From: Escherichia coli
Lineage (GTDB): Bacteria; Pseudomonadota; Gammaproteobacteria; Enterobacterales; Enterobacteriaceae
Strand: one strand, 5' to 3'
Assembly: GCF_051903065.1 (NCBI RefSeq)
Contig: NZ_CP178438.1
DNA: 64,000 nucleotides
In this document: positions 38,241 to 45,914 of the stretch, piece by piece
Numbering within the stretch: position 1 is the stretch's first letter
Layout of the letters: every line of letters starts with the position of its first letter
Notes under the pieces: generated by a model
The model's database searches: none
Told to the model about the DNA's origin: nothing
The model's input: the letters and a program-made list of their open reading frames with translations, nothing else
Made by a program: the position numbers and the translations under genes

Positions 38241-39743
38241 TTAGACATAGCGTTGAGGTAGAGAAACGCTGACACGCGTGCCGTGCAGACAGGAAATGTG
38301 TAATGTGCCACCCAGCGCCGTTACGCGCTCGCGCATTCCGGTGAGGCCAAAACCTTGTTGCCCGGAACCCGGCGGCAAACCGCTGCCATCGTCTTCAATA
38401 ACCAGCATCAACCGTTCATCCTGCTGCCAGCCTTGCAGGGTGACCGCGCTGGCATCAGCATGTTTCACAATGTTGTTCAGCCCTTCCTGGCAGACACGAA
38501 ACAGCGTCACGCGCTGGTTTTCGCTTAACGCTGATTCATCGATTCGCCATTCGAGATGGCTGACAATACCGCGCCCTTCCAGCTCCATTTCCCGCATCAG
38601 TGAGCGGATGGCCTGCTCCAGGGTGAGATCATCCAACTGGCGCGGACGTAACCGACCCAACAAACGGCGCACCGCGTCGTAAACGCCCAGCGATAGTTGT
38701 TCGATGAGCTGCCCGCTCTGCTTCACGCTGGCGTTATCTGCCGCCAGCCGCTGAACAATGCCCGCCTGAGTACGAATAGCAGTGATGGTCTGACCGATAT
38801 CATCATGCAGCTCACGCGCCACATCACGGCGCACGCTCTCTTCGGTTTCCAGCAACCGTTCAGCCAGATGCTGATTGCGCGCCAGTTCCTTTTGCAGCGA
38901 CTGGTTAAGTTCACGCAACCGCTGGATGCCAGCGCCAAGCAACAACCCTGTCAGACTTTGCACCAGCAGCGAGAGCAATAAATCCACCGGATGATCGCGC
39001 CAGGTTTGACTGGCGATCAGCGCGATGGCGTTCATCAACGTCGCAATCAGCGCCCCTTGCCAACCATAGTGCCAGGCCAGCGCGATAATCGGCAGCGCCA
39101 GACAGAATGGCGTAAAGCGCGACAGTTCGTCCGGCAATCCCAACTGGAGCCAGAGACTGATAACAAACAGCAGCAAGTACCAGACCAGATGTCGCCCGCG
39201 CCAGTTGATTGGCTGAGAAACCAGTGACGGACCGAGCGGCAGCCAGGTGTTATTGGCGAGATAGTGCCAGAACACCAGACATATCGGGGCCAGCGTCAGG
39301 CCGCCAGTTAAAGTCAGCAACAGCGCATTCCACGACTCTTTGCCGTGCCAAAGCCAGGGCAGCGACTGCAACAACGCCGCCGCCGTTAACGCCGCCCCCT
39401 GTAACAGCAAGGTGCGCCAGTCACGCTGATGGCGATAGCGCGAGATCAGCGCTACGGGCAGTAACGTCAGTAAACTACCGATCATCAATAACGGAAAATG
39501 GGTTAAACCGACCGCCTGCGTTAGCCAGTAAATCAGCAGCCACTCCGCGCCCAGCAATACGGGCCAGTATCCGCGCGGGCATTGCAGCATTAGCCCCAGA
39601 CGCAGACCAAACGGAAATAACAGCACCGCCATATCAGGGCGCTCAACCAGATGCAGGCTGATACTCCACAGGCAAAACCATGCGGCAGAGAAGATAAAAA
39701 AGCAGGCAATAACGGTAATTAAGCGGGAGAACAACGTCTTCAT
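38241..39743 (-). CDS. uhpB: Sensor histidine kinase UhpB
   Basis: 500 aa from [26 protein letters not shown]...; HisKA_3 motif ELHDDIGQ and HATPase domain. Confidence 0.94.
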
Positions 39744-40333
39744 CACCAGCCATCAAACATGCGGCGCGCCAGCTCTACGTCGTTACTGACGCCCAGTTTT
39801 TCCATCAGATTGGCGCGATGGACGTGTACCGTTTTCGGTGACAAGCCCAGTTCGGCGGCAATCTCTTTCACCGCCATTCCTTGCGCCAGTTTTTCCGCCA
39901 CCTGGCGTTCACGTTTGGTTAGCGGGTCCTGACGACCGGATGCCAGTTTAATGGCAATATCCGGCGTCAGATAACAGCCGCCCGTGGCAACCGTATGCAC
40001 CGCAGCAATGAGTTCATCCGGGCTACAGCGTTTGGAAAGAAAGCCGCGTGCCCCCGCGTTAAGCGCCTGCTCAACCAGCGCAGGACTGTCGTGAACGGAG
40101 AGCATAATCGTCGCCATACCTTTCGGCAGCTGGCTTAGCAGCTCCAGACCGGAGATATCGGGCATGGAGATATCGCAAATACACACCTGCACACCGCGCC
40201 CCGGCAGCCCCGCCAGCGCCTCGCGCCCCGAACCAAACTCGGCAACTACCTGCAAATCAGGTTCCAGCCCCAGCAGCTGCGCAAAGCCGGAGCGGACGAT
40301 GAGGTGATCGTCTATAAGGGCAACGGTGATCAT
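39743..40333 (-). CDS. uhpA: Response regulator UhpA (NarL/FixJ family)
   Basis: 196 aa [42 protein letters not shown]...; overlaps uhpB by 1 nt. Confidence 0.95.
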
Positions 40334-40341
40334 GGTCTTGT

Positions 40342-40375
40342 CCTGGCGGGTAAAAAAAATACGCGCTTACCTTAA
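40342..40375 (-). terminator. Rho-independent terminator downstream of ilvN (hairpin gcgcttatcgttaaggtaagcgc followed by U8)
   Basis: Inverted repeat at 40353-40375 with A8 run at 40342-40349 on the + strand (U-run on the ilvBN transcript). Confidence 0.7.
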
Positions 40376-40408
40376 CGATAAGCGCGATGTTGTTCAAGCC
40401 TTGAGCGG

Positions 40409-40699
40409 TTACTGAAAAAACACCGCGATCTTGTTAAACATCGTCGGATCGGACTGATTACGCTGCACTTTCACGACATCTTCCAGCTTATCGATTTGGC
40501 TTATCATCTGCTCCAGACGCTGGTCGTCATTGACCAGTAGCCAGATATGGCTTTTGTCGCTGTCCTGAATCGGCAGACAAAGAATGCCTTCAACGTTAAA
40601 AGCGCGGCGGGCAAAAAGGCCACAAACGTGGGTCATTACGCCCGGATGGTTGCGAACGGTGAGCTCCAGAATTACGTTGTCATGAGTTGTGTTTTGCAT
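40409..40699 (-). CDS. ilvN: Acetolactate synthase I small (regulatory) subunit
   Basis: 96 aa [56 protein letters not shown]... Confidence 0.95.
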
Positions 40700-40702
40700 G
40701 GC

Positions 40703-42391
40703 TTATTCCCCCACCATTTCAGTATTCGCCGCACCTGGCGGCACCATCGGGTAAACTTTTTCTTCGGCATCAATGCGCACATGGATCAGCGCCGGGCCAG
40801 GGCGATTGATGATTTCCTGCAATGAAGCCTGCGGATCGGCTTCGTTATTCAAATCACAGGTTTCGAGGCCGAATCCGGCGGCAATCTGCATAAAGTTGAT
40901 TTTGCCCGGATAGGTGGCGGCAAAAACGCCTTGCTCGTAGAACAGACTCTGTTGCTGATGCACCAGCCCCAGCGCTTCGTTGTTCATCAGAATGATTTTG
41001 ACATCCAGCTGATTTTCACTGGCGGTCGCCATCTCCTGAATATTCATCATCAGGCTGCCGTCGCCGGAGAAACACAACACTTTGCGATCCGGGTTCGCCA
41101 GCGCAGCGCCAATCGCCGCAGGCAGGCCAAAACCCATCGTGCCCAGCCCACCGGAGGTCAGCCACTGGCGTGGGCGATTGAGCGGATAAGCTTGCGCGGT
41201 CCACATCTGATGCTGACCAACGTCGGTGGTGATAATTGCATTGTCATCGACACAGGCGGCAACGGCGTTGATCAGGCCGTAATGGCTTAACGGATCGCAC
41301 GCTTTCGGGATTGGACACGGAAACTCACGCTGCAAATCCGCTACCAACTGGTGCCACTCTGCACGCGGTTGCGCTTCCACCAGCGGGATCAACTGCGCCA
41401 GCACGTCATCAACATCCGCCTGAATCGCCACGTGCGGCTGCTTGATTTTACCCAGCTCTGCACGGTCGATATCGACATGAATGATTTTGGCATTCGGACA
41501 GAACTGCTCGGTTTTGCCAATCGCCCGGTCATCAAAACGCGCACCGAGCACTATCAACAAATCCGCCTCCTGCAAAATATAGTTGGTGCTGCGCACGCCG
41601 TGCATCCCCAGCATACCCAGCGACAACGGATGCGCTTTTGGCAACATGCCCAGCGCCATTAAAGTCATGGTGGTAGGCAGTTGCGCTTTCTCCGCCAGTT
41701 CACGCACCCGTGCGGGCGCATTGATCACACCGCCGCCCAGATAAAGCACCGGGCGTTTGGCAGCGTTAATCATCGCCGCTGCGTCACGAATGCTTTCTTC
41801 GCTAAAGGCGGGGGCGGCGGCTTTTTCTGCCATAGCGGGCTGTGTTTCAATCTCAAAAACTGCCGTTTGCACATCCTTAGGAATGTCTATCCACACCGGG
41901 CCTGGGCGGCCTGATTGCGCAATGCGGAAGGCATCGCTCATGACCTGCGGGAGTTCTTCGATATGTCTGACCAGATAGTTGTGTTTGGTGATGGGGATAG
42001 AGATGCCGTAGGTGTCCACTTCCTGGAAGGCGTCGGTGCCGATCATCGAGGCGGGAACCTGACCAGTGATGCAAATCAGCGGGATGGAGTCCAGCCGCGC
42101 ATCGGCAATGGCGGTCACCAGGTTAGTCGCACCCGGTCCGCTACAGGCCATACAGACCGCCGGTTTACCGTCGGTGCGCGCCATTCCCTGAGCGATAAAG
42201 CCCGCGCCCTGTTCATGACGGGCCAGAATATGGCGGATTTGCGTGCTTTGGCTTAAGGCATCGTAAACAGGCAGGATAGAACCGCCCGGAATGCCTGTCA
42301 CAATCTTAATGCCCTGCTGTTCCAGGAAATGAACGATAAATTCTGCGCCGGTAAAGCGCTTACGCGTCGATGTTGTGCCCGAACTTGCCAT
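40703..42391 (-). CDS. ilvB: Acetolactate synthase I large subunit
   Basis: 562 aa MASSGTTSTRKRFTGAEFIVHFLEQQGIKIVTGIPGGSILPVYDAL...; ThDP-binding enzyme. Confidence 0.95.
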   Translation of the reverse strand: MASSGTTSTRKRFTGAEFIVHFLEQQGIKIVTGIPGGSILPVYDALSQSTQIRHILARHEQGAGFIAQGMARTDGKPAVCMACSGPGATNLVTAIADARLDSIPLICITGQVPASMIGTDAFQEVDTYGISIPITKHNYLVRHIEELPQVMSDAFRIAQSGRPGPVWIDIPKDVQTAVFEIETQPAMAEKAAAPAFSEESIRDAAAMINAAKRPVLYLGGGVINAPARVRELAEKAQLPTTMTLMALGMLPKAHPLSLGMLGMHGVRSTNYILQEADLLIVLGARFDDRAIGKTEQFCPNAKIIHVDIDRAELGKIKQPHVAIQADVDDVLAQLIPLVEAQPRAEWHQLVADLQREFPCPIPKACDPLSHYGLINAVAACVDDNAIITTDVGQHQMWTAQAYPLNRPRQWLTSGGLGTMGFGLPAAIGAALANPDRKVLCFSGDGSLMMNIQEMATASENQLDVKIILMNNEALGLVHQQQSLFYEQGVFAATYPGKINFMQIAAGFGLETCDLNNEADPQASLQEIINRPGPALIHVRIDAEEKVYPMVPPGAANTEMVGE

Positions 42392-42439
42392 GCTCCAGTC
42401 CTTTTCTTCTGGGCCGACTTTCCGGGAGGTGCTTAAACG

Positions 42440-42474
42440 AAAAACCCCGCCCGGTTTGCGCCGGCGGGGTTTTG
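42440..42474 (-). promoter_or_regulatory. ilvB attenuator terminator (GC-rich hairpin with flanking U/A runs) between ivbL and ilvB
   Basis: Sequence aaaaccccgcccggtttgcgccggcggggtttt read on + strand; hairpin plus T-run on the transcribed strand, located between leader peptide stop and ilvB start. Confidence 0.7.
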
Positions 42475-42496
42475 GAATCGTGTGTTGTTCCAGTCC

Positions 42497-42595
42497 CTAC
42501 GGCGCATTGCCGACGACCACCACCACACGCACGACGACCACTGCGGCGGATGGCGCAGTTGGTAGTAGTTTTGCGTTGAGCATGGAAGTAGTCAT
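42497..42595 (-). CDS. ivbL: ilvB operon leader peptide (32 aa, Val/Leu rich)
   Basis: Minus-strand translation MTTSMLNAKLLPTAPSAAVVVVRVVVVVGNAP* read directly; below ORF-track length cutoff. Confidence 0.85.
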   Translation of the reverse strand: MTTSMLNAKLLPTAPSAAVVVVRVVVVVGNAP

Positions 42596-42724
42596 TGGGG
42601 ACCTTGTTGGTTTTGTGTTTAACAATATTTATACAAGCACAGCTTTACAGGGGAGACAATGGAAAATTTTTCAGCAAGGGAAAATTGAGGGGTTGATCAC
42701 GTTTTGTACTGAATTGCAGATAAC

Positions 42725-42865
42725 AAAAAACCCCGCCGGAGCGAGGTTTCGTCAGTCGCCTGCGGCTGGTAACCGCAAAGCACACTGTATTATGTCAACA
42801 CTGAAAGTATACGTGTTCCGCGCAGAACGCGCAATTTCGGCACGAATTTTGACGTATTTAGTGCA
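42725..42865 (-). ncRNA. istR: IstR antitoxin sRNA (IstR-1/IstR-2), approximate boundaries
   Basis: Minus-strand terminator (stem ccucgc/gcgggg with tetraloop, then U6) at 42725-42746; 20 nt element at 42781-42800 that repeats in the tisAB leader; LexA box just upstream; boundaries inferred, not measured. Confidence 0.5.
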
Positions 42866-42907
42866 TAGTTGAGTATCGATCACAGTTTGCGTTTTGTCCA
42901 AATATTA

Positions 42908-42923
42908 CTGTTTATTTATACAG
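42908..42923 (+). promoter_or_regulatory. LexA (SOS) box CTGTTTATTTATACAG in the istR/tisAB divergent control region
   Basis: CTG-N10-CAG palindrome immediately followed by a TATAAT hexamer at 42933-42938. Confidence 0.75.
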
Positions 42924-43159
42924 TAAACTTCTATAATATCACTGTACGCAATGTGTTATGCGGGGGCCGCATCGTTACCCGGCGCACTAAGTCCTGGCTG
43001 AAACGGGTGGTGCCGTCAGCGCCTTAACCCCGCGTGAGCACACTGTGTTATGTCAACAAGCACAACGTTTCTCCTTGAGATACCGCGTGCACAACAGCTG
43101 GCAACAGGCAGCGGAAAGGTACGTCAGCTGGCAGTGCTCCTGAACCACAGGAGACGCGT

Positions 43160-43249
43160 ATGAACCTGGTGGATATCGCCATTCTTATCCTCAAACTCAT
43201 TGTTGCAGCACTGCAACTGCTTGATGCTGTTCTGAAATACCTGAAGTAA
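43160..43249 (+). CDS. tisB: Type I toxin TisB (29 aa membrane peptide)
   Basis: Translation MNLVDIAILILKLIVAALQLLDAVLKYLK* read directly; below ORF-track cutoff. Confidence 0.88.
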   Translation: MNLVDIAILILKLIVAALQLLDAVLKYLK

Positions 43250-43271
43250 TTCAGATTCAAGTCGCACCAAA

Positions 43272-43297
43272 GGGGAGCGGGAAACCGCTCCCCTTTT
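43272..43297 (+). terminator. Rho-independent terminator after tisB (ggggagcgggaaaccgctcccc followed by T4)
   Basis: Perfect 9 bp stem with GAAA loop and T-run directly downstream of tisB stop. Confidence 0.75.
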
Positions 43298-43318
43298 ATA
43301 TTTAGCGTGCGGGTTGGT

Positions 43319-43354
43319 GTCGGATGCGATGCTGACGCATCTTATCCGCCCTAC
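43319..43354. repeat. REP (repetitive extragenic palindromic) element
   Basis: gtcggatgcgatgctgacgcatcttatccgccctac resembles the REP consensus (GCCGGATGCGGCGTGAACGCCTTATCCGGCCTAC). Confidence 0.6.
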
Positions 43355-43528
43355 CATCTCTCCCGGCAACATTTATTGCCGCTTTTGTTTACATATTCTG
43401 CCGCTAAACAATTCCCCATTCCTGGCGTATATCTGGCTAACATTCATCAATGTGATAGATTCCTCTCCCGCATTTATGGGAATGCGTAGTGACTTATTCT
43501 AATTATTTTTATAAAAGCATCCGTGATA

Positions 43529-44713
43529 ATGAAAAGGCAAAGAAACGTCAATTTGTTATTGATGTTGGTATTACTCGTGGCCGTCGGTCAGATGGCGCAA
43601 ACCATTTATATTCCAGCTATTGCCGATATGGCGCGCGATCTCAACGTCCGTGAAGGGGCGGTGCAGAGCGTAATGGGCGCTTATCTGCTGACTTACGGTG
43701 TCTCACAGCTGTTTTATGGCCCGATTTCCGACCGCGTGGGCCGCCGACCGGTGATCCTCGTCGGAATGTCCATTTTTATGCTGGCAACGCTGGTCGCGGT
43801 CACGACCTCCAGTTTGACGGTGTTGATTGCCGCCAGCGCGATGCAGGGGATGGGCACCGGCGTTGGCGGCGTAATGGCGCGTACTTTACCGCGAGATTTA
43901 TATGAACGGACACAGTTGCGCCATGCTAACAGCCTGTTAAACATGGGGATTCTTGTTAGTCCGTTGCTCGCACCGCTAATCGGCGGTCTGCTGGATACGA
44001 TGTGGAACTGGCGCGCCTGTTATCTCTTTTTGTTGGTTCTTTGTGCTGGCGTGACCTTCAGTATGGCCCGCTGGATGCCGGAAACGCGTCCGGTCGATGC
44101 ACCGCGCACGCGCCTGCTTACCAGTTATAAAACGCTTTTCGGTAACGGCGGTTTTAACTGTTATTTGCTGATGCTGATTGGCGGTCTGGCCGGGATTGCC
44201 GCCTTTGAAGCCTGCTCCGGCGTGCTGATGGGCGCGGTGTTAGGGCTGAGCAGTATGACGGTCAGTATTTTGTTTATTCTGCCGATTCCGGCGGCATTTT
44301 TTGGGGCATGGTTTGCCGGACGTCCCAATAAACGCTTCTCAACGTTGATGTGGCAGTCGGTTATCTGCTGCCTGCTGGCTGGCTTGCTGATGTGGATCCC
44401 CGACTGGTTTGGCGTGATGAATGTCTGGACGCTGCTTGTTCCCGCCGCGCTGTTCTTTTTCGGTGCCGGGATGCTGTTTCCGCTGGCGACCAGCGGCGCG
44501 ATGGAGCCGTTCCCCTTCCTGGCGGGCACGGCTGGCGCGCTGGTCGGCGGTCTGCAAAACATTGGTTCCGGCGTGCTGGCGTCGCTCTCAGCGATGTTGC
44601 CGCAAACCGGTCAGGGCAGCCTGGGGTTGTTGATGACCTTAATGGGATTGTTGATCGTGCTGTGCTGGCTACCGCTGGCAACGCGGATGTCGCATCAGGG
44701 GCAGCCCGTTTAA
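43529..44713 (+). CDS. emrD: Multidrug efflux MFS transporter EmrD
   Basis: 394 aa from MKRQRNVNLLLMLVLLVAVGQMAQTIYIPAIADMARDLNV... Confidence 0.94.
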   Translation: MKRQRNVNLLLMLVLLVAVGQMAQTIYIPAIADMARDLNVREGAVQSVMGAYLLTYGVSQLFYGPISDRVGRRPVILVGMSIFMLATLVAVTTSSLTVLIAASAMQGMGTGVGGVMARTLPRDLYERTQLRHANSLLNMGILVSPLLAPLIGGLLDTMWNWRACYLFLLVLCAGVTFSMARWMPETRPVDAPRTRLLTSYKTLFGNGGFNCYLLMLIGGLAGIAAFEACSGVLMGAVLGLSSMTVSILFILPIPAAFFGAWFAGRPNKRFSTLMWQSVICCLLAGLLMWIPDWFGVMNVWTLLVPAALFFFGAGMLFPLATSGAMEPFPFLAGTAGALVGGLQNIGSGVLASLSAMLPQTGQGSLGLLMTLMGLLIVLCWLPLATRMSHQGQPV

Positions 44714-44720
44714 GCGCACA

Positions 44721-45218
44721 TCATCGCAGCATCGTCATCAGCTCCATGGGAGAACGATGCTGCTTTATCAGATCACGCATCACCCGCATATGCGGTGCGG
44801 AGTAAGAATAAAACGCCTGATAGCCCGCACATAGCATGCTGTCTGGCGTCTCCTCCCGAGCGTGCGGACACAGCCGATGCCAGTCGCACGCCTGGCAGTC
44901 ACGGCGCGGGTGCGGGTTTTCGCTGCCACACCATTTTTGTAGGGTGGAGTCAAATAGCTCAATCGAGATACGACTGATATCTGCCCGCACCCAACACTCG
45001 AACAGGGCAATTAAAAATTTCCCCCACAGCTCTGCTGTCACCGAAGCGGCCGTCATATCGCCCCGGTCATCAAATTCAAGATGGGGAATAAGCTGTACGG
45101 AGCGGATGCCCCGCTGTTTGAAATTGTGATAAAAATCGGCAGGTTGCAGAGCATCCTTGTACTCTACAACCAGTTTATGCCTGTCCTCTTCAGCATCAAT
45201 GACCTGACTTCCTGTCAT
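44721..45218 (-). CDS. yidF: Uncharacterized protein YidF (Cys-rich, possible sulfatase-maturase relative)
   Basis: 165 aa MTGSQVIDAEEDRHKLVVEYKDALQPADFYHNFKQRGIRSVQLIPHLEFDDRGDM...; cysteine-rich C-terminal half. Confidence 0.85.
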   Translation of the reverse strand: MTGSQVIDAEEDRHKLVVEYKDALQPADFYHNFKQRGIRSVQLIPHLEFDDRGDMTAASVTAELWGKFLIALFECWVRADISRISIELFDSTLQKWCGSENPHPRRDCQACDWHRLCPHAREETPDSMLCAGYQAFYSYSAPHMRVMRDLIKQHRSPMELMTMLR

Positions 45219-45577
45219 GCGACTCTCTCAATAAATACGATAAGTTGATGTATATGCGTTACAGCAAACAGTATTGCGAGAGATAACACCGCGAGGGAGA
45301 TCAAAAATTTGTCACGGACTACGTGAAATTGGGAAAAATCGCTATTCGTGACATCCATTAAATTGCGATTACGAGTGTAGTGCCAGAGGATCAGCGCCAC
45401 GATGGCGAGGATGCCAATCGAAATCCAGAATAACATGCCCGCCTGGTGCCAGTTGTGTTTGATAGCCAACGCCATCAACGCGCCGTAGCCCAGCATGGTA
45501 CGAAACCACGCCAATGATGTACGCTCCGGCTGCAGCCCTGGGTCGGCAATGCGTCTGGCTTTGCGGCTATCCGGCAT
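45215..45577 (-). CDS. yidG: Inner membrane protein YidG (DUF202)
   Basis: 120 aa MPDSRKARRIADPGLQPERTSLAWFRTMLGYGALMALAI...; overlaps yidF start by 4 nt. Confidence 0.85.
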   Translation of the reverse strand: MPDSRKARRIADPGLQPERTSLAWFRTMLGYGALMALAIKHNWHQAGMLFWISIGILAIVALILWHYTRNRNLMDVTNSDFSQFHVVRDKFLISLAVLSLAILFAVTHIHQLIVFIERVA

Positions 45578-45914
45578 ACAACACCAGTCCCATAACGATC
45601 ACTGCTACGACCATCAATATTAAGCTGATGATTAATAAGCTGTTGGTGTAGGGCAGGTCCTCTTTCAGACGCATCGCTTTTTCATTGCGTAACCAGCGCA
45701 AGTAGCCATACATCGCTAACCCGCCGGAAAACAGACACAACAACAACGCCAGCAGTTCGCGAATGACGGGCGTGGCGAAATCTGGCGCAAGTTGATCAAG
45801 CCCAACCCCCGCCGCCAGAAATCCTAGTGCAGTACGGATCCACGCCAGAAAAGTACGCTCATTAGCCAGCGAGAAGCGGTAATCAGGCGCTTCTCCGAGG
45901 CGGGAAATTTTCAT
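45567..45914 (-). CDS. yidH: Inner membrane protein YidH (DUF202)
   Basis: 115 aa MKISRLGEAPDYRFSLANERTFLAWIRTALGFLAAGVGL...; paralogous to yidG (shared ERTxLAWxRT motif); overlaps yidG by 11 nt. Confidence 0.85.
   Translation of the reverse strand: MKISRLGEAPDYRFSLANERTFLAWIRTALGFLAAGVGLDQLAPDFATPVIRELLALLLCLFSGGLAMYGYLRWLRNEKAMRLKEDLPYTNSLLIISLILMVVAVIVMGLVLYAG

Follow-up and report, generated by a model that had tools for sequence, protein, structure and literature searches.

The ivbL leader upstream of ilvBN in an Escherichia coli genome: almost certainly a canonical ribosome-mediated transcription attenuator

The question raised by this locus is whether the short region preceding ilvB in the Escherichia coli contig NZ_CP178438.1 (assembly GCF_051903065.1) carries a leader peptide gene and an attenuator in intact form, as an earlier note made from the sequence alone had proposed, and how far it departs from the element known in K-12. 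The stretch of DNA that was analysed is 64,000 nt long and is called the window hereafter. In all likelihood, and with very little room for doubt, the feature corresponds to the ribosome-mediated transcription attenuator of ivbL-ilvBN, in the canonical form known from K-12, and nothing contradicts the attenuator reading. The element is well known and ordinary, with nothing new in its sequence or in its interpretation; a 32-codon leader and its attenuator, lying under the cut-off of the ORF track, had been correctly recognised from the letters alone.

Indeed, the minus strand encodes a leader ORF of 32 codons followed by a TAG stop (42595 to 42497), and its translation, MTTSMLNAKLLPTAPSAAVVVVRVVVVVGNAP, is the 32-aa peptide quoted in the earlier note, which had not stated the strand. 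The ATG (42595-42593) is preceded by a Shine-Dalgarno sequence AAGG (42605-42602) located 6 nt 5' of it, and the stop codon occupies 42499-42497 (codons: ATG ACT ACT TCC ATG CTC AAC GCA AAA CTA CTA CCA ACT GCG CCA TCC GCC GCA GTG GTC GTC GTG CGT GTG GTG GTG GTC GTC GGC AAT GCG CCG TAG). The Val/Leu-rich run that had been described is present, but it is more precisely Val-dominated, the 32 codons comprising nine for Val, three for Leu and none for Ile. All nine Val codons are packed into ten consecutive positions, forming with one Arg codon the regulatory run VVVVRVVVVV (codons 19-28, 42541-42512, minus strand; GUG GUC GUC GUG CGU GUG GUG GUG GUC GUC), which is also region 1 of the RNA. Two of the Leu codons are in tandem (CUA CUA, codons 10-11, 42568-42563, minus strand), and the third is a CUC (42580-42578, minus strand). 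The peptide belongs to the IvbL family: it matches the Pfam model PF08049 (IlvB_leader; 72.6 bits, cut-off 25) and the NCBIfam equivalog model NF007579 (78.7 bits, cut-off 60), in both cases over residues 1-32 of 32, its sequence is that of K-12, and its ORF lies 5' of ilvB on the same strand. The first regulated gene, ilvB (42391 to 40703, minus strand), encodes the large subunit of acetolactate synthase I (562 aa), as indicated by the NCBIfam model NF006016 (1087.5 bits, cut-off 870) and by three Pfam domains of TPP enzymes.

The alignment with K-12 ivbL that had been proposed as a check leaves no difference to explain. Positions 42300-42800 (501 nt), which take in the promoter, the leader, the attenuator and the start of ilvB, show 100% identity with K-12 MG1655 (NZ_CP032667.1) and with many other E. 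coli, the matching MG1655 features are annotated as ivbL (WP_001300753.1) and ilvB, and the curated family models agree with this annotation. The K-12 neighbourhood consists of emrD, ysdE, tisB, ivbL, ilvB, ilvN and uhpA. Over the region compared with MG1655 (39300-45800), the window is identical from 39300 to ~43953 and then shows 36 mismatches on the emrD side; it may come from a K-12-like strain other than MG1655, or there may be a recombination boundary near ~43953. The 234-nt leader is present as a single copy in 5,418 of 5,426 complete E. coli genomes, with at least 99% identity in 5,150.

The word 'intact' also proved apt, as the window carries the canonical 32-aa allele of IvbL while public protein sets, searched with a 42-aa upstream-extended ORF that contains ivbL, hold length variants of 25, 26, 31, 33, 34 and 39 aa (overall 25 to 39 aa). 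The Val run contains two direct repeats of 10 nt, GTGGTCGTCG (42541-42532 and 42520-42511), and 25 and 39 aa are the sizes expected from, respectively, a deletion and a duplication of the 21 nt between them. The junction of the 21-nt deletion (25-aa IvbL) was found in none of the 5,426 complete E. coli genomes, so the 25-aa and 39-aa alleles would be rare or would be artefacts of draft assemblies.

The leader ORF is followed by an intrinsic terminator hairpin, the attenuator itself (helix 3:4; 42473 to 42441, minus strand; AAAACCCCGCCGG-CGCAAA-CCGGGCGGGGUUUU), which begins 23 nt 3' of the ivbL stop (ending at 42497) and sits 50 nt 5' of the ilvB ATG (42391), both genes being on the minus strand. 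This GC-rich hairpin pairs 42473-42461 with 42454-42441, comprises 13 pairs, one bulged G and a CGCAAA loop, and has a folding energy of -21.6 kcal/mol. It runs into a U tract, UUUUU CG UUU (42444-42435, minus strand; U5 = 42444-42440), where the exact 3' end of the terminated leader RNA would be expected. A GC-rich hairpin was thus found where the earlier note had placed one, and the interval 42440-42595 that it had delimited has the start codon and the last U of the U5 as its exact limits. The attenuator was not called by the consensus terminator scan because of its bulged stem, and the ilvB promoter was not called by the consensus promoter scan because of its poor -35 element; both were located instead by reading the sequence and by folding. 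A putative -10 element TATAAA (42633-42628, minus strand) and a putative transcription start near 42621, ~25 nt 5' of ivbL on the same strand, delimit a promoter/UTR segment (42633-42596, minus strand) that includes the CA-rich 5' UTR of ivbL, ACACAAAACCAACAA. From this putative start and the U tract, the leader RNA would measure ~182-188 nt, in agreement with the 188-nt leader RNA reportedly described by Friden et al. in 1982.

The ilvB promoter is directly preceded by the istR/tisB genes. The istR sRNA (42854-42725, minus strand) was identified by Rfam (RF01400, 150 bits for a gathering score of 45), and a 29-aa ORF on the plus strand (43160-43249) encodes the type I toxin TisB (Pfam PF13939). 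The istR terminator (42750-42727) ends ~100 nt before the putative ilvB start, and 34 nt of it (42749-42716) recur exactly at a second site of the E. coli chromosome (locus L123, 801-834), in the interval from rpmG to mutM, presumably as the rpmBG terminator. In ~1,076 of 5,423 complete E. coli genomes, the match to the 175 nt upstream of the leader is limited to the 47 nt closest to it (42672-42626). Strain CD306 lacks the tisB-istR segment, and its spacing from ysdE to ivbL is 245 nt instead of 778 nt (locus L122, 2400-2615), which places the breakpoint (~42672/42673) ~50 nt upstream of the putative ilvB start. According to the title of the 1982 article of Friden et al., ilvBN is also cAMP-dependent. 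The ilvB promoter yielded no CRP site in a consensus search that allowed at most two mismatches; a motif with three mismatches, CGTGATCAACCCCTCA (42701-42686), is a candidate for cAMP control. A CRP-like motif containing GTGATC occurs on both upstream backgrounds, i.e. with and without tisB-istR.

Folding of the leader, which had also been proposed as a check, revealed the alternative antiterminator that an attenuation mechanism calls for. Region 2 of the RNA, AUGCGCCGUAGGGACU (42507-42492, minus strand), is made up of the last two sense codons, the stop codon and GGGACU, and provides the 5' strand of the antiterminator. This antiterminator (helix 2:3; 42506-42457, minus strand; -21.9 kcal/mol) is formed by the pairing of UGCGCCG and GGG (42506-42495) with CCC and CGGCGCA (42468-42457), and its helix encloses a small inner hairpin (42492-42473); its 3' strand extends into the loop of the terminator, to 42457. 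Helices 2:3 and 3:4 are mutually exclusive because both use 42468-42461. A third helix, 1:2 (-15.0 kcal/mol, minus strand), pairs 42539-42520 (Val codons 20-26) with 42512-42492 (the end of the ORF, the stop codon and GGGAC). When regions 2-4 were folded without region 1, the antiterminator was obtained, and when region 1 was included, the terminator was obtained. In the minimum free energy (MFE) fold of E. coli, the Val run folds back on the 5' portion of the ORF, while in the RNAalifold consensus of 66 sequences the columns of the Val run pair with the end of the ORF, i.e. as in helix 1:2. The protector helix may be either of these two, and the switch between 2:3 and 3:4 would be unaffected by which of them forms.

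The MFE of the whole 234 nt is modestly better than that of shuffled sequences (z = -1.87). Forcing one helix or the other on the complete leader put 0.5-4.4 kcal/mol between the antiterminator and terminator states, and with so small a gap the choice of helix is probably kinetic, the antiterminator being expected to form first unless region 2 is covered. The MFE fold of the complete leader under a ribosome mask was tried as a test of the switch and set aside, as it always gives the terminator and is uninformative on kinetics; for this reason, truncated transcripts and forced-helix energies were used. The ribosome was modelled in silico as a 28-nt footprint on the leader. In this model, the antiterminator can fold as long as the A site is on one of codons 1-26; once the A site has moved to codon 27, and on to the stop, the modelled ribosome covers region 2 and this helix is blocked. 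Likewise, in the folding of truncated transcripts, the antiterminator appears whenever the modelled ribosome sits upstream. The locus therefore combines a leader ORF that contains a series of end-product codons, an intrinsic terminator, an exclusive antiterminator that shares the 5' arm of the terminator, and, in the in silico footprint model, a choice of helix that depends on the position of the ribosome. These are the attributes of the ribosome-mediated attenuator class, and they bear out the attenuation arrangement that the earlier note had described.

According to the proposed mechanism, transcription would start ~25 nt 5' of ivbL and a ribosome would translate the 32-codon leader behind the RNA polymerase. 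With ample Val-tRNA and Leu-tRNA, the ribosome would reach the UAG and cover region 2 of the RNA (UGCGCCGUAGGG), so that the 3:4 terminator and the U tract would form and most transcripts would stop short of ilvB. Under a shortage of charged tRNA-Val or tRNA-Leu, the ribosome would stall at CUA CUA or within the run of nine Val codons, leaving region 2 free to pair with the newly made region 3; the antiterminator would then pre-empt the terminator and the polymerase would read through into ilvBN. Because of where the footprint lies relative to region 2, a ribosome at CUA CUA or over most of the Val run is predicted to give read-through, and a ribosome at the UAG is predicted to give termination. 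The present analysis bears directly on the sequence and its match to K-12, on the three alternative helices with their energies, on the effect of the modelled footprint and on the conservation; the kinetic order of folding, the real positions of ribosomes and the in vivo response are taken as probable from these data or from published work on the identical sequence.

This published work is in line with the attenuation mechanism. Addition of Val and Leu represses reporters driven by the ivbL region of MG1655 (PMC11187965), over response ranges of 0-1.46 mM Val and 0-0.1 mM Leu, and six other amino acids with codons in ivbL have no effect on them (PMC11187965). Furthermore, longer occupancy of the ivbL UAG by the ribosome leads to more attenuation (PMC5373646), which fits with region 2 being covered by a ribosome at the stop codon. 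The ilvBN operon is counted among the classical operons controlled by attenuation (PMC1183508; PMC6123439), and ivbL figures on the EcoCyc list of leader peptides (PMC7815308). Another study reported that the sRNA GcvB binds the 5' UTR of ivbL, with a predicted site near the AUG, and that RNase E cleaves the ivbL-ilvB spacer (PMC11347164). From these observations it could be argued that ilvBN is controlled here mainly at the post-transcriptional level, through effects of GcvB and RNase E on mRNA stability and on translation of the leader, and that attenuation is minor. We consider this highly improbable, since the effects reported are modest and their authors state that corroboration is needed (PMC11347164), whereas the attenuator architecture is complete and conserved and the amino-acid-specific regulation matches the codon content of the leader (PMC11187965).

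The conservation of the leader was assessed by scanning a single genome of each species for the pattern (GTN)4-CGN-(GTN)5-GG, which returned at least 120 stretches. Among the matches listed, ~95 are ORFs of Enterobacterales that end in ...AAVVVVRVVVVVG(N/S/K/I/T)AP* directly 5' of an ilvB homologue; the other matches listed belong to high-GC actinobacteria and were discarded as chance occurrences. The leader thus precedes ilvB, among these matches, in at least 93 Enterobacterales genomes representing ~30 named genera of several families, including Escherichia, Salmonella, Citrobacter, Klebsiella, Enterobacter, Kluyvera, Serratia, Dickeya, Proteus, Budvicia, Pragia and Leminorella. The conservation of the Val-run peptide is partly imposed by the scan, as the pattern requires VVVVRVVVVVG; the pattern imposed neither the third positions nor the downstream RNA. 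In loci L011, L049, L112 (Kluyvera), L093 and L108, an extra segment of at least 50 nt is found between the U tract of the attenuator and the ribosome-binding site of ilvB; it may be a repeat of the ERIC type (enterobacterial repetitive intergenic consensus).

The same set of genomes bears on the possibility that the hairpin is a mere ordinary terminator, serving istR read-through or acting in both directions, and that the 32-codon ORF arose by chance and is neither translated nor involved in sensing. The hairpin is indeed nearly symmetrical and flanked by A4 and U5, there are weak sub-threshold Rfam matches to a terminator-like shape on the plus strand, and the upstream neighbour istR is on the same strand. 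Against this, istR has a strong terminator of its own (42750-42727), the reading frame, the stop codon and the Val run are kept in 93 genomes among the matches listed, always directly 5' of ilvB, the ORF matches curated IvbL models (PF08049, NF007579), and published translational fusions of ivbL are expressed while the region responds to Val and Leu (PMC11187965, PMC5373646). The chance that this is the correct explanation is accordingly close to nil, and the attenuator reading is retained.

At the level of RNA structure, the terminator hairpin is kept in 66 of 66 aligned leaders and was also found independently by RNAalifold. In this alignment of 66 sequences, 95.6% of the terminator cells are paired (28-66% in slid controls), 7 of the 13 pairs being invariant, and 90.2% of the antiterminator cells are paired (38-62% in slid controls), the outer helices being nearly invariant and the inner hairpin showing compensatory changes at three pairs. 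The upstream helices have 80.0% of their cells paired (33-58% in slid controls) and 41 cells with a double change, a number reached by none of 500 shuffles. The terminator and the outer antiterminator give little covariation support because they are almost invariant; this near-invariance argues for function and speaks neither for nor against a specific pairing.

The synonymous positions point in the same direction. Among the matches listed, entropy at the synonymous third positions of leader codons 17-32 averages 0.31 bit over the 93 genomes, with a major allele frequency of 0.93; the positions in the Val run are nearly invariant. By comparison, conserved four-fold degenerate ilvB codons of the same genomes, located ~150-250 nt 3' of the leader ORF, have values of 1.40 bit and 0.60. 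These values show strong purifying selection on the synonymous sites of the leader across Enterobacterales, and a constraint at the RNA level. Furthermore, the third-position A of the CUA CUA pair is kept in 60-61 of the 66 aligned Enterobacterales leaders (alignment A1, columns 67-72), which suggests selection for the rare Leu codon CUA in the leader. The leuL leader also has tandem rare CUA Leu codons.

The unpaired GGCAAU and the terminator loop CGCAAA are near-invariant across genera as well. It is therefore conceivable, although rather unlikely, that the near-invariant segment from the Val run to the terminator (~30 genera; synonymous sites, linkers and loop) reflects a second function on top of attenuation, either as a trans-acting RNA or GcvB hub or through pause or processing signals. 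In particular, the terminated leader RNA of ~185 nt might also act in trans besides its role in attenuation, for example as a sponge or decoy of GcvB. Such a role, to which we give a similarly low probability, would explain why sequence conservation exceeds the needs of base pairing, and the near-invariance of these unpaired bases, the CA-rich 5' UTR and the reported targeting of ivbL by GcvB at a predicted 5' UTR site near the AUG (PMC11347164) would all be compatible with it. Nevertheless, binding of GcvB is equally explained by regulation of ivbL translation, and the invariance of the unpaired bases could result from the overlap of a coding sequence, three helices and polymerase pause signals.

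As a textbook regulatory element in its reference form, characterised since 1982, the locus has little discovery value; its practical use is that of a positive control. The by-products of the analysis are the in silico dissection of three alternative helices and a comparative set showing purifying selection on the synonymous sites of the leader in Enterobacterales.

In comparison with known systems, the element is without any difference from the ivbL-ilvBN leader and attenuator of E. coli K-12 (b3672), and the gene order, uhpA-ilvN-ilvB-ivbL-istR-tisB-emrD, is alike. The K-12 leader was reportedly described by Friden, Newman and Freundlich in 1982 (PNAS 79:6156) and by Hauser et al. in 1985 (J Biol Chem 260:1765). 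An Rfam search of 41800-43800 (E ≤ 1) returned none of the leader families (Leu_leader, His_leader, Thr_leader, Trp_leader), istR being the only hit at threshold, and it appears that there is no Rfam model for the ivbL leader; the plus-strand matches to P6 and STnc310, which are terminator-shaped and far under their gathering scores, were dismissed. The leader is similar to ilvL of the ilvGMEDA operon in its class of mechanism, its pathway, its length of 32 aa and its richness in branched-chain amino acid codons (PMC6123439), but ilvL senses Ile, Val and Leu whereas ivbL, which lacks Ile codons, responds only to Val and Leu (PMC11187965), and the ivbL peptide is distinct from that of ilvL in family and in sequence. 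With leuL, trpL, hisL and thrL, it shares the logic of a leader ORF that carries consecutive regulatory codons and of an alternative between antiterminator and terminator, although it is unrelated to these attenuators in sequence. The ivbL leader thus works like the amino-acid leader families of Rfam but stands outside them.
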